From an uncultured Candidatus Saccharibacteria bacterium (lineage in GTDB: Bacteria; Patescibacteriota; Minisyncoccia; Phycocordibacterales; CAIZLB01): 64,000 bases of DNA. The stretch spans positions 174,728 through 238,727 of the forward strand of contig CAZKAF010000001.1 of the NCBI GenBank assembly GCA_964550955.1, given 5' to 3'. The notes below the pieces were generated by a model that saw nothing but the letters and a program-made list of their open reading frames with translations, was not told the DNA's origin and ran no database searches. The position numbers and the translations under genes are program-made. Positions within the stretch are counted from its first letter, which is position 1. Every line of letters starts with the position of its first letter. Positions 1-47,965 of the stretch are shown here, piece by piece.

Positions 1-234
1 TCCAAGCAGGCGCCCGAAAGCGTGCTTGAGGAGGATGTTGCCCGGGACGAACGGGCGGCCTTACGGCATCTGACGCGCCTTGCTGCTGCGCTTGGGTTGA
101 TGGGCACAGACGAGTATGCGTTCATGATTGAAAGCGGAGGAGACGATACTCGGACCAATATACGGGCGCGCATCCTGTACAGGGAATTGTTCAAGGAAGC
201 TCAGCGGACAGAGTCTGATGCGGTTGCTGCGTAA
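1..234 (+). CDS. 3' end of an unidentified gene entering the window (C-terminal ~77 aa)
   Basis: Frame 1 is open from the window edge to TAA at 232-234 (…SKQAPESVLEEDVARDERAALRHL…). No motif I can recognise. Confidence 0.3.
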   Translation, partial: SKQAPESVLEEDVARDERAALRHLTRLAAALGLMGTDEYAFMIESGGDDTRTNIRARILYRELFKEAQRTESDAVAA

Positions 235-311
235 AAGCAACTATGCTACTGGGAAGCATGGAGCAAGTAAGATCAAGACAAACAAAACCACCGACCCAGC
301 GGTGGCTTTTT

Positions 312-725
312 TTATTTTCCTTTAATTGCGCACTTCGGGCATCTGCAGCCAGCCGGCTTCAAGTGCGCGTCGAAGTATTCTTTGCCGTAGTCATAGCAAA
401 TTTCTTCGCCGGAGGAAATCTTCCTCGTCGCAAAAATGAAAGCCCTGGAATTATGTATGACTATTTCCGCATTGGGCCTGCATGAATGGTTGATGTACCT
501 CGCCGTGTTCGATCTGTCCCGGCCGTCAATCGTCTTTCGGGAATTTATCTCAAAAAGATATTTGCTTCGGCTCGTGTACTCTTCCTCGCCCTTGATGACC
601 CTTCCGACATATTCGATGATGCATGCTCCTTTCGGAATGTCCGCGCTTGCGAAGAGGCCGAGGCCGGCCGATGATTTCTTGACCGAATAGGCCGTCTTGT
701 CGAGCGTCGCGTAGTTTCTTCTCAT
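312..725 (-). CDS. SET-domain protein (putative protein-lysine N-methyltransferase)
   Basis: 137 aa carrying the SET hallmark motifs GLGLFA, RYINHSCRPN, EEICYDYG and a post-SET Cys cluster CRCPKC. Confidence 0.8.
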   Translation of the reverse strand: MRRNYATLDKTAYSVKKSSAGLGLFASADIPKGACIIEYVGRVIKGEEEYTSRSKYLFEINSRKTIDGRDRSNTARYINHSCRPNAEIVIHNSRAFIFATRKISSGEEICYDYGKEYFDAHLKPAGCRCPKCAIKGK

Positions 726-897
726 GGCTGGATTTCTTAGTTTGTTTGCGGTTATGTTGAGAGCATATTATATGCGCACTTCGGATAATAGCAAAGCGCG
801 CGGCAAAACGTCCGGCCGCGCCTGCCGGCGAAGCCTGGTCAGGCGCTTCATGAATTCGAGGGTGGTCATCGCCGGCATTCTTTTATATGATTAGAAC

Positions 898-3657: not shown

Positions 3658-4026
3658 ATGAATATCATCATCAAGGGGGTACATATGGAAATGACAGAAG
3701 CCATTCGGTCTTACGTACAAAAAAAGCTTGAACCGGTCAAGAAATTCGTTGATGAGGGTTCAAAAATAGAAGTGGATCTGGGCAAGACTACCAATCATCA
3801 TAGGAACGGGGACATTTTCAGGGCGGAATACAACATCGTGACCGACGGAAAGCTTACTCGGATCGAAGCGGTGGCGGAAGATCTTTATACCGCCATAGAC
3901 GTCGCGCAGACGGACCTGCTCAACGCGCTCGCGAACCAGAAAGGCAAGAAGCAGACTCTCTGGAAGAAGGGTTCCCAGCGGATCAAAGACTTTGCTCGCG
4001 GACTTGCCAAGCGAAAGAGGAAATAG
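3658..4026 (+). CDS. hpf: ribosome hibernation promoting factor / RaiA (YfiA) family
   Basis: 122 aa. MNIIIKGVHMEMTEAIRSYVQKKL… is the typical HPF N-terminus, and the C-terminus is basic. Confidence 0.85.
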   Translation: MNIIIKGVHMEMTEAIRSYVQKKLEPVKKFVDEGSKIEVDLGKTTNHHRNGDIFRAEYNIVTDGKLTRIEAVAEDLYTAIDVAQTDLLNALANQKGKKQTLWKKGSQRIKDFARGLAKRKRK

Positions 4027-4107
4027 AATAGAGCACGAAAAAAGCGAAGGGTTGCTGGCGGTGAGGGCTTGCCGCGGCGGCACGCGTGACATCCGCTCGG
4101 CCGCGCG

Positions 4108-5019
4108 CTAATTCTTCAAAAAGTTCTGGAAATCTTTCCAAGTCATATCGCCCCTGCCTTCAGGGGTGATTTTGATTATTTCCAGGCTTCCGGCATCTTC
4201 GTTCCAAAGTACCTCTTTGACTTTAACTCGCATGTCTTTGTCTTTGTGCGATACAAAAAAGTAAAGTCCCGGCCATGCGGACAGCGCCTGAAACTTCAGG
4301 TAAATTTTATATCCGATTGAGCTGTCAAAAATCCCGGTATCGCTATCAAGCTTTAAGATTTCTTCAGCGGCCACGAACCCGTCCTCCTTCGTGATTTTCC
4401 TGGTGAACGTGGCCTGATCGTGATTCTGGACAAGAAGTTCCGCTTTTCCTGCAATGTAGTCAGGGAGGGATTCAAGAAGGATGTCCGCGCCTTTCTCGGC
4501 AAGCAGCTTCTCGAGGTCGAGGATGTTCATCGGCCAAGGCGTCAGCTTCTTGCTCCATTGGGCAAGTATCGGCCCGTGATCCATTTCCTTGTCCATCTGT
4601 ATGATGGTCACGCCCGTCTGCTGCATGTCCTCGAGAATGGAGGTCTGAAGCGGCGTCGCCCCGCGAAGCTTCGGCAAAAGGGACGGGTGGACGTTCAGCG
4701 AGCCGTGTTCGGGTATGTCGAGCACGGCCTGGGGGATTATTTTCCCGTATGAAGCCACTATAAAGATATTGTGAGCGGATTCGGGCAAGCTCGCGGTTAT
4801 TTCGGCAAGCGTCTCGACTGCGGCCTGATTCAGCTTTTCAAACTGAATGCAGTGCACGCCGTTCTGCTCGGCCCAGACTTTGACAGGGGGAGGGGTCATG
4901 AGCATCTTTCTGCCTGCCGGCCTGTCAGGGACGGTCACTATGACTTCGGGTCTGATTCCTTTTTCCAGGAATCGATTCAGGACATGTATGGAGAATGCGG
5001 AGGTGCCGAAAAAGATCAT
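4108..5019 (-). CDS. fmt: methionyl-tRNA formyltransferase
   Basis: IFFGTSAFS N-terminus and the NVHPSLLPKLRGATP catalytic motif. It lies immediately downstream of def, the classic def-fmt operon. Confidence 0.9.
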   Translation of the reverse strand: MIFFGTSAFSIHVLNRFLEKGIRPEVIVTVPDRPAGRKMLMTPPPVKVWAEQNGVHCIQFEKLNQAAVETLAEITASLPESAHNIFIVASYGKIIPQAVLDIPEHGSLNVHPSLLPKLRGATPLQTSILEDMQQTGVTIIQMDKEMDHGPILAQWSKKLTPWPMNILDLEKLLAEKGADILLESLPDYIAGKAELLVQNHDQATFTRKITKEDGFVAAEEILKLDSDTGIFDSSIGYKIYLKFQALSAWPGLYFFVSHKDKDMRVKVKEVLWNEDAGSLEIIKITPEGRGDMTWKDFQNFLKN

Positions 5020-5020
5020 C

Positions 5021-5734
5021 TCATTGTTTCTTTAATTTTTTAATCTTGGTCGCGGCCTCCGTCCGCTGATTGTCCTCTGCGGTCGTTTCTTCCGCTTCTG
5101 CCTGCCGGCTTCGGGCAGAAAGGGCGTCTTGGCCTGACCTTTCCATTATTTCCTTGTGCTGGGATTGGCTCGTGACGGGGTTCACTTCCTTCGGGTCCAC
5201 GTGCTCGAGGTCCTTTGCCCGGTCGATGAACAAGATGCCGTTGAGGTGATCCACTTCATGCTGGAAGATATGCGCGAGGAGACCCCCCGCTCCTCGTTCC
5301 ACGATCTCGCCCTTTTCGTTGAGTGCCCGGATTGAAACCTTGGTCGATCTCTTCACCTTGCCGTATACCCATCGCACCGAAAGGCATCCTTCGCCTTCCA
5401 TCCATTTCTTTTCCTTGGACTCCTTGGTTATGACCGGGTTTATGAAAACTGCATCCTGGCCGTTTTCTCCGAAAACTTTCTTGGAAACTACGAAGATCCT
5501 TCTTGAAACGCCTATTTGCGGAGCCGCCAGTCCGATGCCGTCATGCTGCGAATCCAGGACGGCCTTCATGCGCGAGATGAGTTCCTGGACTTCGGGACTT
5601 TGTATCTGGTCCGCAGGAACCTCTTTGGCCATTTCGCGAAGCGCCGGATGACCTTCGCTTACGATTTGCGAAGCCAGGGCCGAAGCGCCTTTTGAGGTTG
5701 TTTTCTTGGATTTTGCCATTGGTTTTCTATACAA
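5021..5734 (-). CDS. def: peptide deformylase with ~65-aa low-complexity C-terminal extension
   Basis: PDF motifs GIGLAAPQIG, EGCLS and HEVDHLNG. Its stop overlaps the fmt start. Confidence 0.9.
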   Translation of the reverse strand: MYRKPMAKSKKTTSKGASALASQIVSEGHPALREMAKEVPADQIQSPEVQELISRMKAVLDSQHDGIGLAAPQIGVSRRIFVVSKKVFGENGQDAVFINPVITKESKEKKWMEGEGCLSVRWVYGKVKRSTKVSIRALNEKGEIVERGAGGLLAHIFQHEVDHLNGILFIDRAKDLEHVDPKEVNPVTSQSQHKEIMERSGQDALSARSRQAEAEETTAEDNQRTEAATKIKKLKKQ

Positions 5735-8017: not shown

Positions 8018-9031
8018 ATGGGATTTTTCTCCAAAAAGCTGGGAATAGATTTAGGGACTGCCAATACGCTTGTTTTCGTTCCCGGGCGCGGCCTCATCCT
8101 GAATGAGCCTTCAGTAGTGGCCGTTTCCGAGCAGGATAACCGCATTCTGGCGGTAGGAAACGAGGCCAAGGACATGATCGGCAAGACTCCCGACAGCATC
8201 ATCGCGTACCGGCCGATGAAAGACGGCGTTATCGCGGACTATCGAGTTACCGAAGCCATGCTTCGATACTTCATAAACAAGGCGCTGGGGAAATGGAATA
8301 TCTGGAAGCCTGAAGTGATGGTTTCCGTTCCGGCCGGCGTGAGCTCGACTGAGCGGCGGGCGGTCATCGAGGCTGCCATCAAGGCGGGCGCGAAAAATGC
8401 ATACGTCGTCAAGGAGCCTATTCTTGCCGCTATCGGCGCGGGCATTTCCATTCAGGAAGCGGTAGGGCACATGATCGTGGACATCGGCGGCGGCACGACG
8501 GACGTCGCGGTGATTTCGCTCGGAGGCATCGTGGCCTGCACTTCCGTAAAATGCGCGGGCAACAGGATTGATGCGGCCATCACGGATTACATCAAGAAGA
8601 CATATAACTTGGCCATCGGAGACAAGACGGCTGAGGAAATCAAGATACAGGTGGGGTCCGCAGTTCCAGTTGAGGAAGAGCTCACCATGACTATCAAGGG
8701 GCGGGACTTCCTTACGGGGCTTCCTCGGGCGGTGGACATCAAGACAAACGAAATCGTCAAGGCAATTTCCAAGGAGCTTCGGGACATGATCAAGGCGATC
8801 AAGGACGTGCTTCAGGAGACTCCGCCGGAGCTCGCATCCGACATCATCGACAACGGCATCACCATGACGGGCGGATCGTCGCAGCTTCGGAACTTGCCCG
8901 AGCTTGTCTTCAGGAGAACTGGCGTGAAGGCGGTCCTTGCGGACGATGCGCTGTACTGCGTGGCGAAGGGGACCGGCATCGCCTTGAATCATCTCGATAC
9001 CTACAAGAAGACCATTATCGCGAAGCGGTAA
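8018..9031 (+). CDS. mreB: rod shape-determining actin homolog MreB (paralog 1)
   Basis: GIDLGTANTLVFV phosphate-1 motif, DIGGGTTDVAV, and MreB length of 337 aa. Confidence 0.9.
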   Translation: MGFFSKKLGIDLGTANTLVFVPGRGLILNEPSVVAVSEQDNRILAVGNEAKDMIGKTPDSIIAYRPMKDGVIADYRVTEAMLRYFINKALGKWNIWKPEVMVSVPAGVSSTERRAVIEAAIKAGAKNAYVVKEPILAAIGAGISIQEAVGHMIVDIGGGTTDVAVISLGGIVACTSVKCAGNRIDAAITDYIKKTYNLAIGDKTAEEIKIQVGSAVPVEEELTMTIKGRDFLTGLPRAVDIKTNEIVKAISKELRDMIKAIKDVLQETPPELASDIIDNGITMTGGSSQLRNLPELVFRRTGVKAVLADDALYCVAKGTGIALNHLDTYKKTIIAKR

Positions 9032-13178: not shown

Positions 13179-14435
13179 ATGAGACAATCAAAACTTTTTA
13201 CGAAAACGCGCCGGGAAGCGCCAAAAGACGAAGTCGCGAAAAACGCGCAGCTGCTTATCAGGGCGGGATATGTCGAGAAGACCCTTGCCGGGGTGTATTC
13301 GTTTCTGCCTCTCGGCCTCAGGACCATCGAGAAAATCAAGGCCATTATCCGGGAGGAGATGAACGCCATGGGCGGGCAGGAGCTTTCGCTCGCGTCCTTG
13401 CAGGACAAAAATGTATGGGAAAAAACTGATCGATGGGATGATGCGAAAGTGGACAATTGGTTCAAGACGGAACTTGCGAACGGCGCCGAAGTCGGGCTCG
13501 GGTTCACGCATGAAGAGCCGCTTACTGAATTGATGAAAAATCACATTCATTCTTTCAGGGATCTTCCGCAGTACGTGTATCAGTTTCAGACCAAATTCAG
13601 GAATGAAAAGCGCGCAAAGAGCGGAATCATGCGAGGCAGGGAGTTCCTGATGAAAGACCTGTATTCGTTCTCAAGAGACGAGGCGCAGCACGCTGACTTT
13701 TATGAAAAAATGAAGGTCGCGTACAAGTCAGTTTTTGACAGGGCCGGAGTAGGGCATCTCACATATCTGACGTTCGCGGGCGGGGGGACTTTCTCGAAAT
13801 TCTCGCATGAGTTCCAGATGGTTACGGAGGCCGGCGAGGATACTATTTACATCGACGAAGAGAAGGGCATCGCGCTGAACGAGGAGGTAAACAATGACGA
13901 GGTGCACAAGATGCTCGATTTGGACCCCAAGAAGTTCAAGGAAGCGAAGGCGGTAGAGGTCGGAAACATATTCAGTCTCGGAACCAAGTTTTCTGACGCG
14001 CTGGAACTCGGCTACGCTGATGAGTCGGGAAAGAAGGCGGCGGTTGTCATGGGCTGTTATGGCATCGGCGTTCCTCGCCTGATGGGCGCGATCGTCGAAG
14101 TCTTGTCAGACGACAAGGGCATCGTTTGGCCGAAGTCGGTCGCGCCGTTCGCGGTTCACCTGGTACTGGTCAACGGTTCGGAGGAAACGAGCCAAAGGGC
14201 CGAGCAGCTGTACAAGACGCTTACGGATGAAGGCATCGAGGTGCTGTTCGATGACAGGGACGCCCGAGCCGGCGAAAAGTTCGGCGATGCGGACCTCATG
14301 GGCATGCCGATTCGGGCGGTTGTCAGCGACAAGAACCAGAAGAACGATGCCGGGGAATTTCTCATAGAAGCAAAGGATAGAAAGACGGGCGAGGTTCAGA
14401 ATGTCACGGCTGAAGAATTGATAAAATTATGCTAA
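13179..14435 (+). CDS. proS: prolyl-tRNA synthetase, compact form lacking the INS editing domain
   Basis: Class II motifs YSFLPLGLR and RGREFLMKDLYSF and a ProRS-type anticodon-binding C-terminus. At 418 aa it is much shorter than the ~570-aa bacterial form. Confidence 0.85.
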   Translation: MRQSKLFTKTRREAPKDEVAKNAQLLIRAGYVEKTLAGVYSFLPLGLRTIEKIKAIIREEMNAMGGQELSLASLQDKNVWEKTDRWDDAKVDNWFKTELANGAEVGLGFTHEEPLTELMKNHIHSFRDLPQYVYQFQTKFRNEKRAKSGIMRGREFLMKDLYSFSRDEAQHADFYEKMKVAYKSVFDRAGVGHLTYLTFAGGGTFSKFSHEFQMVTEAGEDTIYIDEEKGIALNEEVNNDEVHKMLDLDPKKFKEAKAVEVGNIFSLGTKFSDALELGYADESGKKAAVVMGCYGIGVPRLMGAIVEVLSDDKGIVWPKSVAPFAVHLVLVNGSEETSQRAEQLYKTLTDEGIEVLFDDRDARAGEKFGDADLMGMPIRAVVSDKNQKNDAGEFLIEAKDRKTGEVQNVTAEELIKLC

Positions 14436-15493
14436 AAAAACTCAGAAACAGATTTCTAAAATTCGCGTCAAATGACATCGGCATCGATCTCGGCACTGCC
14501 AACACGCTCGTGTACGTGTCCGGAAAGGGCGTGGTCATAAACGAGCCTTCGGTAGTTGCCGTGAACCAGAAGACGGGACGGGTCGTGGCTGTCGGCGCGC
14601 AAGCCAAAGCGATGCTTGGCAGGACGCCGGGACATATCATCGCGGTTCGGCCGCTCGTTGACGGCGTTATTTCGGATTTTGAGATAACGGAGGAAATGCT
14701 TTCGTATCTGATCAAGAAAGCCGAAGGTCTTTCGAAGAAAATGCTCGGTCCGAAAGTTGTCATCGGCGTTCCGTACGGCGTCACGAACGTCGAGCGGCGA
14801 GCGGTTCGCGACGCGGCTAAAAACGCCGGCGCCAGGGAAGTGCATATCGTGGAAGAGCCCATGTCGGCAGCCATCGGCATCAGGCTTCCGGTTCGAGAAG
14901 CGACGGGCAGCATGATCATCGACGTCGGAGGAGGGACGACCGACATTGCGGTCATCTCGCTTGGGGGCATCGTGCGGGCCAAGAATCTCAAGGTCGCGGG
15001 CGACAAGCTCAATGCCGACATCATGTCGTATATCCGGAACGAGTTCAAGATTCTCATCGGCGAGAAGACTGCCGAAGACGTGAAAGTGGCCATCGCCAGC
15101 GTGCTTCCGTGCAACCCTTCGCTCGAGACGACTATCCGAGGACGAGACTTGGTCACGGGCCTTCCGCGAGAGGTGATCATCACCGATTCGGACATTCGCG
15201 AGGCCATAGGAGCGTCCATCGACACGCTTCTTGACTCGGTCAAGGAAGTTCTTGAAACCACTCCGCCTGAAATCCTCGCCGACGTCATGCGAAACGGGAT
15301 ACACCTTACAGGCGGCGGAGCGCTGATCAGAAGCCTTCCCGAAGTGCTTTCCGAGTACGTCGGCATTCCGGTATATGTTGCGGAAGATCCGCTCACAGCG
15401 GTCGCCCGAGGCGCCGGAATCATCCTCGAAGAGATAGATTATTTCGAAGACATGCTAATCCAAAACGAAAATGAGCTACCTGCTACGCGATAA
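14429..15493 (+). CDS. mreB: rod shape-determining protein MreB (paralog 2, head of mreBCD-pbp2 operon)
   Basis: IGIDLGTANTLVYV and DVGGGTTDIAV. It overlaps the proS stop and is followed by mreC. Confidence 0.9.
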   Translation: MLKKLRNRFLKFASNDIGIDLGTANTLVYVSGKGVVINEPSVVAVNQKTGRVVAVGAQAKAMLGRTPGHIIAVRPLVDGVISDFEITEEMLSYLIKKAEGLSKKMLGPKVVIGVPYGVTNVERRAVRDAAKNAGAREVHIVEEPMSAAIGIRLPVREATGSMIIDVGGGTTDIAVISLGGIVRAKNLKVAGDKLNADIMSYIRNEFKILIGEKTAEDVKVAIASVLPCNPSLETTIRGRDLVTGLPREVIITDSDIREAIGASIDTLLDSVKEVLETTPPEILADVMRNGIHLTGGGALIRSLPEVLSEYVGIPVYVAEDPLTAVARGAGIILEEIDYFEDMLIQNENELPATR

Positions 15494-26198: not shown

Positions 26199-26270
26199 GG
26201 CCCTATCGTCTAACGGTTAGGACGAAGCCTTCTCAAGGCTTAAATCGGAGTTCGATTCTCCGTAGGGTCA
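26199..26270 (+). tRNA. tRNA-Glu (anticodon CTC)
   Basis: Hand-folded cloverleaf. Acceptor GGCCCTA/TAGGGTC; D-stem GTCT/GGAC; anticodon stem AAGCC/GGCTT with loop TTCTCAA; T-arm CGGAG-TTCGATT-CTCCG; discriminator A. CCA is not encoded. Confidence 0.8.
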
Positions 26271-26365
26271 CAAATAGCAAGAAAGATAAAAGTGGAGATT
26301 GGCAATGAGAAAGTACACGTAAAATCTGTCGTTGAATTTTATCCGAAAATAGATATAGTTATATA

Positions 26366-33817: not shown

Positions 33818-36800
33818 ATGAAAGCCTTTTTCTCGTATCCGGTAAGAAACTTCGCGGCTCTCTGTCTGACGCTCGGTCTCATTCTCGCCCCCAACGCATC
33901 TCTTCTTGCTCAGGTAGGCGACAGCAGTCTCACGTTCCTTCAGCGCCTCAGATGCGCATTCAACCCCGTGCTTCTGGTGGTTCCTTTGCCCGGCTATTGT
34001 TACCGGGTTGATATTGCGGATGACACTTCGGCTGCCGCTTCGACGTCGGAGTCGGAAACGTCGGCTCTTGCAAGCATCCTGCAACCAAGGGGCATGGCGG
34101 CGCCTGCGGCTCATGTTCCCTCCAGCGCGGAAATTCCTGCTGCGACGACGCGAGCTGAAGGCATTTCCTCTTCAGGGCAGCGGCCTGTATACGTCACGAA
34201 TACTCTGTATCGAACCGATCCGGACGCGGTAACTCGCCAGCAATTGGAGCAAAGGCTCCAGCTGTTCAAGAATACGCTTCCCGTGACGGTTACGGCTACA
34301 GGCTATTCAGCCCCGACTTACGCTTCTTATTCATGGACCAATCCGCCGCCAAACATGGCATCCGCGGAGTATGTCAATTCAAGGGTGTCCGAGAGTTTCT
34401 CTTCCCTGGCGCTTCGCATCGATGACATTGAGCAGAATCAGCAGGGCACATCCAGCCCTTCGCAGTGGGCTGACGGAATCGCGGGCATTTCATATACGGG
34501 AGGGAATGTCGGAATCGGCACTACCACCCCTCCGTTCACCCTGACCGTAGCAATGCCGAGCGGGGAGCAGGCGTTCTTTGTCACTTCGAGCGGAGCTGCG
34601 GGAAATAGCACCGCAAATCCTCTTGATGCTACCGGCGTCGGCCTTACGCCGAGGAGGTTTTCATGGGAGGTTCCTGGGGCGGGATCTGGCTGGGGTGCAC
34701 GTTTCTCGAATGCCGGCACAGGAAATTTTAAGAACGTTCTCTTCCTTTCTGCCGCATCAACTTCTACATTCAGTTATATCCTGAGTGCTGAAAGCGGCGG
34801 CGTCAGCAGGTTCATCGTGAAGGCAAACGGCAGAGTCGGCATCAATACGGCCGCCCCGTCGAGCATGCTCGATATCAGGGCGATGAATGGGGATACTGAC
34901 CTTTTTTCTGTCACATCTTTTAATAATAATCCGTCTCTCGTTGTAAGGAATACCGGCTTGGTCGGAATCGGAACCGGCAATCCAGACGCAAGGCTTCATG
35001 TTTTGTCTGCAGCCACGAACGCTGCCACGCTTGTTGCCCAGGCCACTACTTCCCAGGCAGCATCCGTCCTTGATGTTCGGGATTCCACGGGAATCTCACT
35101 TCTCAACGTGCTGCCGGGAGGTAATGTCGGCATGGGCACCGCTTCGCCGAACCATCTCTTGGAGGTTTCCCATGCGGGCACGGCCGACTTCCTGGGCGTA
35201 GGGGCTTTCTTTGCGCCGAACAACACTACGGCCGGATACGCGACGCAGCTTAAGTTTGGCGTGAGCAATACGATGGGCAACAGCGCGGAATGGCGATACG
35301 TTCATCAGGGAAGCGACAACAACGCAAACCGGATTGACTTTGGATTCAACGGATACGCATCTCCTGTGCTTTCGTATAACAAGGCCGGCAATGTAGGTAT
35401 CGGCACCACAACACCAGCACAAAAACTTTCAGTCGCTGGCGGTATGCGACTCACTGGAGCGTTCTTCGACGGTGCAAATACGAGCGGCACAGCGGGCATG
35501 GTTTTGCAAACTACAGGCACTGGCACGCAATGGGTGGCCACTTCGTCATTGGGCATCTCCGGCGGCGAGTCGTCGCAATGGACAACCTCCGGATCTGACA
35601 TTTATTATGATGCAGGAAAGGTGGCGGTAGGGACGACTACGGCCTGGGATGACTTTACCGTCAGCTTGAATGGCGGAAAGAGAATGTCCATGGGTGCCGA
35701 CTCGAACAATTATCTCGCATGGGGGTTCACGAGCGGCGGCTACAGTTCAGTTCCAAGTTATGCCAATGCGGGCGGTACTGGCAATAGGACATCGCTCATT
35801 ACGGTATCCGGAACACTTACTCTTGCGGTTGGAGCACCTTCACGATTGGTAAACGGAGATATTTCGGCAAACGCTGCTTATTTTACAAACAATGAATCTG
35901 TGGCAGGCAAGTATCTTGTGTTCGACTTCGGCGTGGATGCGTCGAAAGTTATCACTGAAGCAAGATTTTACCAGAACCCTGCCATTTCTCAAGGAACGTT
36001 CAATTGGCAAGGGTCGAATGACGGCAACACCTGGACAGATATTGGCTCAAGCTTTGTTCTTGGTGGAAATACGGTGCAAACCATTACGACTCTTTCGGAA
36101 AATACTACAGGCTATCGATATTATCGAATCCTTGGATTGTCCGGGACGACGAATTGGAATTCCTACATACATCAGTTTGAGTTTCAGATTGATGATTTTC
36201 AAACAGCAACCTATGCCTCTGGGCAAACATATTCAATTGATGGTGTTTCGGCTGCCGGTACTGTTGCGCTTCAGTCGTCTGGCGGCAGCGTGGGAATTGG
36301 TACCGTGTCCGCATTGTCCAAGCTCGATGTTAACGGAAATGTATCCATCGGATCATATGCTGGAACAATAGCGGCGCCAGTAAACGGCTTGATTGTGAGC
36401 GGCAACGTGGGTATTGGCACTACGACTCCTGCCAGCAAGCTTTCGGTTGCCGGAAGCGCATTTATCGGCGGCGATTTGGTCGCAACAGGCAGCATCACCT
36501 TCGGCAATTTTAATATGAATGCTGTGGCAACGTGCGGTCAGCAATACCATACCTTTATCGGCTCCATCGGAGACGTCGGCGGCGATCAGTGCGCGGCCCT
36601 GAACGTGACTCAGCAGGATACGAACGGAAATGTTATTTACCGCTTCGGCGGAGTCGGCCAAGCATGGGCTGGTGAATTTTATGCCAACAGCTCTCTGGTT
36701 GGAATGAACACTAAGGGTGGCATCCCCCTCAGCTTTCAGATCGGCCAGACTGAGGCGATGAGGGTTGCGACAAACGGCAACGTGGGCATAGGAACGACGA

Positions 36801-38194
36801 CTCCAGCCTACAAGCTTGATGTCAACGGCGACATCGGCCGTTCCGGCGGCGACTTGGTGATGTACGCCGGCGTGAAAGACAATTCAAGCCTTTGGTTTAG
36901 AACTGGAACGAGCGCGAACTATACGGACGAATTTGTCATAAATGGAGCTGCAAATACCATTTCCCTTGGCGGCAATGATTTGCTGCTTTCTTCAGGAAGG
37001 ATAGGCATTGGCACCACCACGCCAGCGAGCAAACTCCACGTCTTCTCTGGCGAGGCTGGTCCGGTTGTCGCGACCACTACGGCAAGCCTGGTACTCGAGA
37101 GCGCTTCGAGCAATTTCCTTCAGTTCATGAATCCTGGAGCCGCCGCCTCCGGTGTGTTCTTCGGCCACGGCAATAGCGGCGGCACGTACCGCGACGGCGC
37201 AATCCTCTATAACTACGTCGGCCCCTCGAACAGCTTGGCCTTTTACGCGGACGGCGTCGATCCGCGCATGATTATCACGGGCACGGGCAACGTGGGAATC
37301 GGCACCACGACTCCTACCGAAAAGCTCGATGTGGTTGGAGGCATACGAGCATCGAGTCCTTCAGGGAACATCGGCGTATCCGTGCATTATTCCGGGTCTG
37401 GAGGAAGGGAATATCAGTTCTTGTCATGTTCGAATTGCGGCACTGCCAGCCTCGGCGGCCTTGAGGTGTATGACCGCAATGCCAGTGCGGGACGCGCATA
37501 TATCGCGGCGGGAGTGAACGGCTGGCAGACGCCATCCGACCGACGCCTCAAGAAAGATATCGAGACGCTGAGCGTTCTCGACAGGCTTGGCGAAGTTCGG
37601 GGCGCAACGTATGTCTTGCGCGATTCGGACATCAAGCAAATCGGCGTCATCGCTCAGGAAATCAGGGACGCGTTCCCTGAAGCGGTGTCAGGAGAGGAAA
37701 TAGAAGGGCGCTTCCTCGGAGTTTCATATGATGCCATCGCGACTATTGCGCTTCAGGGCGTCAAGGAAATCGCCGATCTTTCAAGCGCCTTCAAGAATCG
37801 TCTGATCGGTTGGTTTGCTGACGCCTCAAACGGAATTGGCAAATTGTTTGTCGGCGAAGTTCGTACCGAAAAGCTATGCGTAGGCGATACGTGCGTCACT
37901 GAAGCCCAGCTCCAGGCGCTCCTTCTCAATGCGAGCCTTTCTCAGGCTCAAGCGTCAGGAGGATCAAGCGCGCCAGCTGCTGAATCAGGCGCTCAAAATG
38001 ACAAGAACGACGCGGGCAAGGAAAAGCCGAAAGATGCGGCCGACAATGCGCCGGCAGCCGGCGGGAAGCCGGATGATTCAGCGCCCGCTGACAAAATTAA
38101 AGATGCCGCCGTCATTTCTCCGCCGGCTGATCCCGTGATTTCAGAAGCCGGGCTCTCGTTGCCGACGACGCCCGAAGCTCCAGTTGAAAATTAG
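33818..38194 (+). CDS. giant secreted fibre/adhesin-like protein (1458 aa) with tail-fibre-type repeats, discoidin-like segment and C-proximal intramolecular-chaperone (peptidase S74-like) domain
   Basis: Signal peptide MKAFFS…LLAQ. At least 10 copies of G(N)VGIGTTTPxxKLxV. Segment KYLVFDFG…FNWQGSNDGNTWTDI…YRYYRILG resembles F5/8 type C. PSDRRLKKDIETLS…GVIAQEIRDAFPEAV…VSYDAIATIALQGVKEI matches the tail-fibre/endosialidase chaperone domain. An Ala/Pro/Asp/Lys-rich tail follows. Confidence 0.8.
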   Translation: MKAFFSYPVRNFAALCLTLGLILAPNASLLAQVGDSSLTFLQRLRCAFNPVLLVVPLPGYCYRVDIADDTSAAASTSESETSALASILQPRGMAAPAAHVPSSAEIPAATTRAEGISSSGQRPVYVTNTLYRTDPDAVTRQQLEQRLQLFKNTLPVTVTATGYSAPTYASYSWTNPPPNMASAEYVNSRVSESFSSLALRIDDIEQNQQGTSSPSQWADGIAGISYTGGNVGIGTTTPPFTLTVAMPSGEQAFFVTSSGAAGNSTANPLDATGVGLTPRRFSWEVPGAGSGWGARFSNAGTGNFKNVLFLSAASTSTFSYILSAESGGVSRFIVKANGRVGINTAAPSSMLDIRAMNGDTDLFSVTSFNNNPSLVVRNTGLVGIGTGNPDARLHVLSAATNAATLVAQATTSQAASVLDVRDSTGISLLNVLPGGNVGMGTASPNHLLEVSHAGTADFLGVGAFFAPNNTTAGYATQLKFGVSNTMGNSAEWRYVHQGSDNNANRIDFGFNGYASPVLSYNKAGNVGIGTTTPAQKLSVAGGMRLTGAFFDGANTSGTAGMVLQTTGTGTQWVATSSLGISGGESSQWTTSGSDIYYDAGKVAVGTTTAWDDFTVSLNGGKRMSMGADSNNYLAWGFTSGGYSSVPSYANAGGTGNRTSLITVSGTLTLAVGAPSRLVNGDISANAAYFTNNESVAGKYLVFDFGVDASKVITEARFYQNPAISQGTFNWQGSNDGNTWTDIGSSFVLGGNTVQTITTLSENTTGYRYYRILGLSGTTNWNSYIHQFEFQIDDFQTATYASGQTYSIDGVSAAGTVALQSSGGSVGIGTVSALSKLDVNGNVSIGSYAGTIAAPVNGLIVSGNVGIGTTTPASKLSVAGSAFIGGDLVATGSITFGNFNMNAVATCGQQYHTFIGSIGDVGGDQCAALNVTQQDTNGNVIYRFGGVGQAWAGEFYANSSLVGMNTKGGIPLSFQIGQTEAMRVATNGNVGIGTTTPAYKLDVNGDIGRSGGDLVMYAGVKDNSSLWFRTGTSANYTDEFVINGAANTISLGGNDLLLSSGRIGIGTTTPASKLHVFSGEAGPVVATTTASLVLESASSNFLQFMNPGAAASGVFFGHGNSGGTYRDGAILYNYVGPSNSLAFYADGVDPRMIITGTGNVGIGTTTPTEKLDVVGGIRASSPSGNIGVSVHYSGSGGREYQFLSCSNCGTASLGGLEVYDRNASAGRAYIAAGVNGWQTPSDRRLKKDIETLSVLDRLGEVRGATYVLRDSDIKQIGVIAQEIRDAFPEAVSGEEIEGRFLGVSYDAIATIALQGVKEIADLSSAFKNRLIGWFADASNGIGKLFVGEVRTEKLCVGDTCVTEAQLQALLLNASLSQAQASGGSSAPAAESGAQNDKNDAGKEKPKDAADNAPAAGGKPDDSAPADKIKDAAVISPPADPVISEAGLSLPTTPEAPVEN

Positions 38195-46955: not shown

Positions 46956-47291
46956 GAAAGGGGAGCGGGAAGTGGGTACACAAGGGCCGCCCTGTCGAAC
47001 ATGGGGCCTCTCGGCAAAGCATCGTCGCGCTACCGGGGCTACTGCCCTATCGGGAATCAAGGTTCCCTCATCATCGTTAAGAGAAATATTCCTCGCATTT
47101 CATAAGTTTGCAAGCTGCAATTTTCTTAAATAAAAATTTAAAACCAACCTGAAGGGGAAGAGAACGAATTTAAAATTCAGGCACTTGCATGCCGGCCTTT
47201 ACAGTCTGGCGGGGTGCCGGTAGCTTCGATTATATACATGTCGCACAATATGCCTTTTGCGACATACATATGTGAGAATAGCCCGTATTCT

Positions 47292-47337
47292 ATATAAAAA
47301 GGCCCGGATGCCGCACGCTGGGTGCATTGGCATCCGG
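47292..47337 (-). terminator. orphan intrinsic terminator (minus strand) inside a ~1-kb non-coding gap
   Basis: Perfect 9-bp stem CCGGATGCC…GGCATCCGG. On the minus strand it is followed by GCCTTTTTATATA. Confidence 0.45.
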
Positions 47338-47965
47338 ACCGAGCTCTTGATTTGGGCTCTTCCTCATCCCGATAATTTGGAATCATGCTCATCGGCTAAC
47401 ACTAAGCCAATTTGTTGCTGATTTTTTGCAGATTTCGGAAGCTGCGCGTTTGTGCAATCGTCGGCTAGTCATGCCGGACCTGATTATCGGAATTTGTTTT
47501 CTTGGTCAACCAGAGGTATCGGTCGAGACCTGGGTTCGTCAGCTGGTTGCGTATCAAAGTCTATACTAATTACCTTCCGTGTCAATTTCGAGCCTCCAGA
47601 ATCGATTTTAAGGCATCTGAAATTTTCTTCATGATACTTCGTCCATGCATGTGAATGGCAGGCCGCACCCGCACGCATTCTTGGGTCGCGTTCGGCCGAT
47701 TCTTCGGCTCGAACCTGAACTAAGTCCTTTCGAGCTCACGGGGTTTCACGCATCTGAGAATATAAATATAAGAAGAATCCCGCGAAAAAATGCAGGCAAG
47801 TCTATTGCAACTGATTTGCAATAATATGATATGAAGGGTACAGGATATGGCCCCGCTTACCGGTCAGGCTTTGCCGGTGCGTCGCATGACTACGTGCTGC
47901 ATTTATGAAATACACGGACTCGGGCTTTCTTCCGTCATTCTTCCTCACGTCTCTTCCCTCTCTCC

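Follow-up and report, generated by a model that had tools for sequence, protein, structure and literature searches.

Near the left end of the window, by which the whole 64-kb stretch of DNA analysed is meant, a small gene for a SET-domain protein is separated by a divergent intergenic region from the gene of a CPR-C4-family cysteine protease (Table 1). NCBI lists a protein identical to the 137-aa SET protein, encoded on a contig of 696,200 bp. Since a promoter-like site lies upstream and a hairpin follows the stop codon, the SET gene looks like a transcription unit of its own. The hairpin is a predicted bidirectional terminator, common to the SET gene and to the convergent gene ending at position 234. 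The latter encodes 244 aa (locus L001, 10492-11226, minus strand), with its C-terminal end at 22..234 of the window. This gene and a further one of 153 aa (L001, 11412-11873, minus strand), both reaching or lying beyond window position 1, had no Pfam match; the 153-aa gene was found again near SET in L003 and L007. Long antisense ORFs cover the SET gene (436..690 and 486..674, plus strand) and the C4 gene (883..1560, minus strand), and they look conserved across loci because the genes that they shadow are conserved.

Table 1. Features of the SET locus and of related loci. Positions are those of the window unless a locus (L) is named; res, residues of the SET protein.
Feature	Position	Strand	Remarks
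SET-domain protein gene, 137 aa	312..725	minus	ATG start; SET core and short post-SET region
SET motif I, GLGLFA (GxG, AdoMet pocket)	648..665 (res 21-26)	minus	G21, G23 invariant
SET motif II, IEYVG (YxG)	603..617 (res 37-41)	minus	Y39 invariant
SET motif III, ARYINHSCRPN	471..503 (res 75-85)	minus	N79, H80, S81, C82, N85 invariant
SET motif GEEICYDYG	384..410 (res 106-114)	minus	E108, Y111, Y113 invariant
Post-SET Cys cluster, CRCPKC (CxCx2C)	330..347 (res 127-132)	minus	C127, C129, C132 invariant
Promoter-like site, TTGCTA-16 nt-TATAAT	767..794	minus	10/12 consensus matches only; about 40 nt upstream of the SET ATG
G+C-rich hairpin, T-runs on both strands	284..309		Directly after the SET stop codon
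SET/CPR-C4 divergent intergenic region, 172 bp	726..897		One promoter-like site per gene
CPR-C4-family vasohibin-like cysteine protease gene, 207 aa	898..1521	plus	Divergent from SET
C4 adjacent to SET	L002, L003, L004, L007, L010, L011, L035, L068	divergent	Gaps of 62-165 bp
C4 co-directional with SET	L028, L066, L017	same	Gaps of 31 bp, 150 bp and 1.2 kb
C4 further from SET	L078, L009	divergent	0.6 kb and 2.9 kb
SWIB/MDM2 protein gene	L010 6949-7203; L011 7073-7318; L026 3226-3480; L048 995-1246		
Csp gene near SET	L017 6409-6618; also L027, L028, L045, L035	minus (L017)	
HPF-fmt-def group near SET	L003, L004, L007, L031, L032, L078		

Domain, motifs and fold of the SET protein

The earlier note had read the 137-aa ORF as a SET protein from the strings NHSCRPN and EEICYDYG and a post-SET Cys cluster, and had proposed a profile search, in which the absence of a match would count against it. 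The Pfam SET profile (PF00856) matched over positions 1-105 of 105 with E = 2.9e-25 and 89.2 bits, where the gathering score is 22.4, the domain beginning at about residue 15. All four SET motifs and the Cys cluster were recovered on the minus strand, which bears out the assignment. Invariance was scored in an alignment of 40 family members, in which 33 positions were invariant. In sequence searches of the PDB, the best matches were the SET domains of KMT2C, KMT2D and KMT2A (E ~1e-20, aligned through the post-SET region), which reached 1e-24 with the family profile; G9a/GLP, SET1, ASH1L, NSD and SETD2 followed, and no bacterial or archaeal SET protein was among the 60 best solved structures. 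An AlphaFold2 model built with 40 homologues had a pLDDT of 78.9 and a pTM of 0.71, the SET-I region being its least confident part (pLDDT 56-65). When this model was compared with the PDB by Foldseek, the SET domains of MLL1, MLL3 and G9a were returned (E = 4e-9 to 1e-7, TM 0.6-0.69), those of MLL1 and MLL3 ranking first (E = 4e-9, TM 0.62-0.69). The match is far beyond chance, and on this basis the protein is judged to be a genuine, complete and intact SET domain.

The roles of the motif residues were taken from the Set1/MLL1 literature (PMC3585878). On its map, Y39 corresponds to yeast Set1 Y967 and N79/H80 to N1016/H1017; the Phe/Tyr-switch Y1052 has its counterpart in Y111, and the catalytic Y1054 in Y113. 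Lys115 (nt 381-383) takes the position of F1056, an aromatic residue of the lysine channel whose Ala mutant is null in yeast Set1 (PMC3585878), so the channel may be differently built in this protein. The nearly invariant Y117, which comes two residues later, is aligned with a second Phe of KMT2C; it may supply the channel aromatic in place of Lys115. Four Cys are invariant (C82, C127, C129 and C132), with the spacing CxCx2C as against the canonical CxCx4C. C82 is the expected fourth Zn ligand, a role that we take from what is known of post-SET domains.

The CxCx2C cluster was present in 120 of 120 close relatives, and 99 of the best 150 representatives of the family had it as well. CxCx4C, which KMT2 also has, was found in 8 of these 150, including the more distant bacterial P0242, P0323 and P0331. 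The isoelectric point is 9.4 (9.0-10.0 in the family), and no signal-peptide-like hydrophobic segment was found on inspection of the sequences. Among the 99 CxCx2C representatives, 52 carry C-terminal tails of at least 20 aa, many of them rich in Lys, Arg and Ala and histone-H1-like (e.g., P0263, P0275, P0294, P0256 and P0270; the P0256 cluster has a member labelled Xanthobacteraceae). Tandem SET-SET relatives (P0241, P0242, P0323 and P0331) exist and thereby suggest a dimeric working unit. From its sequence features, we assign the protein, so far uncharacterised, to a mini-SET subfamily of bacteria that has CxCx2C as its mark.

The enzymes of the KMT2/MLL-SET1 family (PDB 5f59, MLL3; 2w5z, MLL1), which are the best matches (E = 1e-20 to 1e-24, ~34-37% identity, TM ~0.6-0.69), carry their SET domain within a large protein with N-SET/Win regions and are activated by WDR5-RbBP5-ASH2L. 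In the window, by contrast, the SET domain is the whole 137-aa protein. It is without the N-flanking, Win and WRAD-partner regions and therefore stands outside the KMT2 family. It further differs in a SET-I insert that is about 8 residues shorter than that of MLL3 in the alignment, in CxCx2C instead of CxCx4C, in Lys for the F1056-equivalent aromatic, and in a source organism without histone H3. Automatic annotation already names the family 'SET domain-containing protein'. One relative, KND50875.1 of Parcubacteria bacterium C7867-007 (146 aa, in the cluster of P0243), bears the NCBI name 'histone-lysine N-methyltransferase MLL3'; this name is over-specific and transferred by similarity, and it does not signify KMT2 membership.

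Distribution and conservation of the family

Relatives of the SET protein were abundant: 7997 of 8000 scored candidates had E <= 1e-5, and the best 120 shared 62-100% identity at lengths of 126-179 aa, with the labels, where named, of Candidatus Paceibacterota, Parcubacteria, Vogelbacteria and Taylorbacteria. Paceibacteria/Parcubacteria contributed thousands of relatives at 60-84% identity. By the labels of the nearest relatives, the window belongs to a CPR (Patescibacteria) bacterium whose genome is small. In a scan of GTDB with one genome per species, at least 581 species encoded a relative. The CPR lineages among the best 80 GTDB matches were Paceibacterota and Vogel-, Kaiser-, Nomura-, Moran-, Wolfe- and Adlerbacteria, and the matches outside the CPR included, at 47-65% identity, Methyloceanibacter and Microvirga isolates, Hyphomonadaceae, Terricaulis and Pseudorhodoplanes, besides Pyrinomonadaceae, Blastocatellia, Chloracidobacterium and a few Beta-, Gamma- and Deltaproteobacteria. 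In free-living Alphaproteobacteria isolates from soil and sea and in Acidobacteriota, the identity was 50-60%. An exhaustive HMM search of 1.84 billion representatives at 50% identity gave 21,475 proteins with E <= 1e-3 and 5,284 with E <= 1e-10; only 110 clusters reached E <= 1e-30, because the family is so uniform.

Between loci ranging from 35 to 71% G+C, the SET proteins remained 50-84% identical, and identity above 50% over so wide a range of base composition therefore indicates strong purifying selection. The conservation is about that of ribosomal proteins. From these comparisons the family emerges as a large and tightly conserved bacterial one, not a rarity, and the view that bacterial SET genes are sporadic, expressed in the earlier note, does not apply to it. 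The same note had found it unusual to meet such a gene among the core genes of a reduced genome. The housekeeping context and the small genome are as described there, but given the breadth of the family in the CPR its presence is not unusual.

A crude neighbour-joining tree (137 columns, no support values) showed coherent clades of Acidobacteriota, Rhizobiales and Hyphomonadaceae interleaved with CPR groups; this is suggestive of old transfers and too weak for a conclusion. A recent transfer of the window gene from a eukaryote was rejected in view of the wide bacterial distribution of the family and of the CxCx2C signature that is peculiar to it. An origin in defence systems, phages, plasmids or other mobile elements was likewise without support: PADLOC profiles gave zero matches and PHROG profiles a single marginal one (E = 0.008), and the relatives on viral contigs and on Burkholderia-group megaplasmids did not exceed 40 and 43% identity, respectively. 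SET genes in free-living and environmental bacteria have already been recognised (review PMC3980110), and among the open-access papers searched none was found that links SET domains to CPR, Parcubacteria or Patescibacteria.

Gene neighbourhood and the CPR-C4 gene

The genes around SET in the window are housekeeping genes, namely those for a ZIP transporter, a TlyA/FtsJ-type methyltransferase, DUF167, HPF, fmt, def and priA, and the window also holds MreB, the delta' subunit of DNA polymerase III, RRF and a division/cell-wall cluster. All-against-all ORF clustering of 81 loci revealed no gene that always stands beside SET. The largest clusters of apparently conserved neighbours (c1, part of c2, c4, c7 and c22) proved to be artefacts, made of antisense or frame-shadow ORFs over SET or Csp.

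The product of the divergent gene matched the crystal structures of CPR-C4 (PDB 7ob6, 7ob7 and 7pjo) over its full length, residues 4-206, with E = 1e-49. It had no Pfam match, and the databases call it 'hypothetical protein'. In an alignment of 11 SET-linked homologues, its catalytic Cys53 and His84 were invariant. The Lys of its SKTNH motif is likewise invariant. CPR-C4, a cysteine protease that is highly conserved in the CPR, has a remote structural similarity to human vasohibins, which are tubulin tyrosine carboxypeptidases (PMC9108980, Cornish et al. 2022). It has a Cys-His-Leu(carbonyl) triad, activity was shown on casein only, and its positively charged pocket implies an acidic substrate (PMC9108980). 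According to its authors, the gene neighbourhood, in which the published gene is flanked by ABC-transporter genes, gave no functional clue, and neither SET nor methyltransferases are mentioned in their paper (PMC9108980). In the window, by contrast, and in about one in five of the CPR loci sampled, the neighbour of C4 is SET.

Of 80 species-level loci anchored on SET, 13 had C4 upstream of SET at a distance of no more than 3 kb, in both orientations (Table 1). Eleven of the 13 are CPR-labelled and two are labelled 'bacterium' only, and in the crude tree they are spread over at least five separate CPR clades; among the loci labelled Proteobacteria or Acidobacteriota, C4 was near SET in 0 of 33. 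In the reciprocal analysis of metagenome loci anchored on C4 (C4 identity 44-63%), SET lay within 1.8 kb in 11 of 80 loci, or 11 of the 62 in which the sequence upstream of C4 extended for 600 bp or more; the two genes were divergent in six of the 11 and ordered C4->SET in the other five. As a synteny control, the retention of the other window neighbours was counted. Near SET, HPF was kept in 6 loci, fmt in 5, def in 4, DUF167 in 2, priA in 1, and ZIP and TlyA in 0; near C4, where the counts ran from 0 to 4, fmt was kept in 4, def and DUF167 in 3 each and HPF in 2. C4 is thus the neighbour most often kept beside SET, above every other one of the window. In many cases, a SET and a C4 database match lie on the same contig, some of these contigs being only 1.4-4 kb long; the matches tagged RJB39_393 and RJB39_394 are consecutive. 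By our estimate, a single-copy gene would lie within 3 kb of a given other gene in fewer than 1% of genomes of 0.7-1.2 Mb by chance.

The linkage is partial (~15-30% of CPR loci) and decays with divergence, from 7 of the 10 closest loci to about 6 among the further ~35 loci of CPR bacteria, a pattern as expected from decaying ancestral synteny. No SET-C4 fusion was found among the best 150 of the 1.84 billion representatives, and the longer matches, considered as possible Rosetta-stone fusions, were SET-SET tandems or tailed forms. The pairing was not found reported. Together with the degree of SET conservation in minimal genomes, it is what goes beyond routine annotation here.

Other neighbours recur in fewer loci (Table 1). 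An 84-aa SWIB/MDM2-domain protein (PF02201, E ~1e-31) is encoded near SET in four CPR loci, in one of which (L026) it lies 82 bp upstream on the same strand; none is encoded in the 64-kb window. This domain is chromatin-associated in eukaryotes. In one CPR clade, a gene for a 69-aa cold-shock-domain protein (PF00313) is convergent with SET and follows it by 49-64 bp (L017, L027, L028 and L045). The block C4 -> (SET) -> <-Csp occurs there both with and without SET (L105, L113, L117, L121, L125, L127 and others), and SET is therefore facultative at that position. TruB-type and RsuA/RluB-type pseudouridine synthases recur near SET in different CPR lineages, and the HPF-fmt-def group, at 3658..5734 in the window, lies within 6 kb of SET in 4-6 CPR loci. 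On account of these neighbours and of the basic tails, we lean towards a nucleic-acid- or translation-associated setting, each association being weak (3-7 loci) and CPR genomes being rich in translation genes anyway.

Possible roles of the SET protein and other features of the window

Based on the data above, the SET protein is rather likely to be an active, cytoplasmic, Zn-stabilised and AdoMet-dependent protein-lysine methyltransferase, probably a dimer, which would carry out low-order methylation of a conserved endogenous target. The gene would be transcribed alone, from a promoter in the divergent region to the hairpin terminator, to give a small basic cytoplasmic S-adenosylmethionine-dependent protein-lysine N-methyltransferase, in which a predicted Zn-binding post-SET region (C82 with C127-x-C129-x2-C132) would close a bare SET core whose SET-I is very short. 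That the enzyme is active is very probable. The domain matches a full-length SET profile and the fold of the MLL1, MLL3 and G9a SET domains, and the key residues of its four motifs do not vary across 40 members; the strong purifying selection extends over the CPR and the free-living Alphaproteobacteria and Acidobacteriota, with family-coherent clades. It is quite likely that the target is one of the bacterium's own conserved proteins and not a histone of a host, and an important endogenous substrate is probable because the gene is kept both in CPR genomes of ~0.7 Mb and in free-living soil bacteria. The basic protein without a signal-peptide-like segment, the Lys/Arg/Ala-rich tails, the SET-SET tandems, the promoter-like site and terminator that flank the gene, and the recurrence of HPF-fmt-def, pseudouridine synthase, SWIB and Csp neighbours all agree with such an endogenous enzyme. 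More tentatively, this context points to a nucleoid, RNA-binding or ribosome-associated class of substrate; by context the target would probably be a nucleic-acid-associated or translation-associated protein, and it is plausible that the enzyme methylates a nucleoid protein or some other protein associated with nucleic acids. Against this stand the Lys at the F1056-equivalent position, the low confidence with which SET-I is modelled, the small number of loci behind each nucleic-acid-binding neighbour, and the window itself, in which no HU or histone-like gene was found. The earlier note had suggested a search for histone-like or Lys-rich candidate substrates; in the 64-kb window, the Lys-rich proteins are only HPF and L27-like, L9-like and GreA-like proteins, which are not informative on the substrate.

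When SET proteins of bacteria are discussed, it is usually as effectors that pathogens have acquired and direct at their hosts, and the earlier note had pointed to host interaction. The protein could accordingly be a nucleomodulin-like histone methyltransferase that an epibiotic CPR cell delivers to host chromatin proteins. Its closest solved relatives are indeed eukaryotic H3K4 methyltransferases, CPR bacteria are thought to be host-dependent (PMC9108980), and the characterised bacterial SET proteins are mostly effectors (PMC3980110). The protein is nevertheless without a signal-peptide-like segment, effector domain or accessory targeting domain, and no secretion-system genes were found in its neighbourhood. 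The equivalog model of Legionella AnkI/LegAS4 (NF043024, 439 positions) matched the SET part only (model positions 31-141), with 45.2 bits against a cut-off of 550. The family occurs at 50-60% identity in free-living Alphaproteobacteria and Acidobacteriota, in which it differs from those acquired effectors, it is conserved about as tightly as ribosomal proteins, which is not typical for an effector, and it has no phage, defence or plasmid association. Moreover, the known hosts of CPR bacteria are mostly bacteria or archaea, which are not known to have histone H3. A role as a host effector is thus very improbable. The small or single-domain SET lysine methyltransferases known from prokaryotes, namely Go1-SET of Methanosarcina mazei, Chlamydia cpnSET/NUE and Legionella LegAS4/RomA, resemble the window protein in their make-up, and none is closely related to it, the LegAS4 model matching partially. 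Those of the pathogens are secreted effectors that carry additional domains or signals for secretion, in contrast to the present family of free-living bacteria and CPR. Go1-SET methylates MC1-alpha, and both Go1-SET and cpnSET act on chromatin-like proteins of their own cells (PMC3980110), which is the kind of role proposed here. The bare core is shared with a viral enzyme as well, and the tandem SET-SET relatives suggest a similar dimeric unit. This enzyme, PBCV-1 vSET, is a minimal viral SET core of ~120 aa that is dimeric and is not known to have a post-SET Zn cluster; the window family, by contrast, keeps the post-SET Cys cluster, and its relatives on viral contigs are distant.

The Lys115 substitution, the truncated SET-I and the non-canonical post-SET spacing would also fit a catalytically dead fold that is kept as a binding or structural module. 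The residues for AdoMet binding and methyl transfer (GxG, the Tyr of YxG, NH, the catalytic Tyr and the four Cys) are however all invariant, and the nearly invariant Y117 could provide the missing aromatic, which makes a pseudoenzyme exceedingly improbable. A further reading extends the endogenous methyltransferase and does not exclude it: SET and CPR-C4 may form a coupled two-enzyme module, in which lysine methylation and vasohibin-like trimming have one endogenous substrate in common, or each enzyme acts on the other. This is tentative at best. It accords with the recovery of the pair from both anchors, divergent and co-directional and in at least five CPR clades, with the lower retention of all other window neighbours, and with the shared short contigs and consecutive tags; the C4 paper, in which SET is absent from the text, had found no clue in its own neighbourhood (PMC9108980). 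The linkage, on the other hand, is partial and fades with divergence, one clade keeps C4 -> <-Csp with and without SET, no fusion was seen among the best 150 representatives, C4 is absent near SET in all 33 loci labelled Proteobacteria or Acidobacteriota, and most pairs are divergent and not one operon. That the two are halves of a conserved modification module working on one shared endogenous substrate, perhaps an acidic-tailed or nucleic-acid-associated protein, is doubtful. If true, it would be loosely analogous to the tubulin and histone 'codes' of eukaryotes and would give a first physiological context to CPR-C4 and to a widespread family of small bacterial SET proteins. In any case, the pairing offers a concrete and testable hypothesis on two orphan enzymes, as well as on protein methylation in bacteria of minimal make-up.

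Some features further along the window were recorded in passing. An ORF of 1458 aa at 33818..38194 (plus strand), with a signal-like N-terminus and 6% Lys/Arg, probably encodes a large surface protein. About 0.9 kb at ~46960..47960 is without an ORF of at least 100 aa, and an Rfam scan (E <= 0.1) gave no match there; a single RNA gene, tRNA-Glu at 26199..26271, was detected in the 64 kb. Two MreB-like actin homologues appear to be encoded less than 7 kb apart, at 8018..9031 and 14429..15493 (both plus strand), the former with a Pfam MreB_Mbl match in the Logan record and the latter judged from reading of the sequence.
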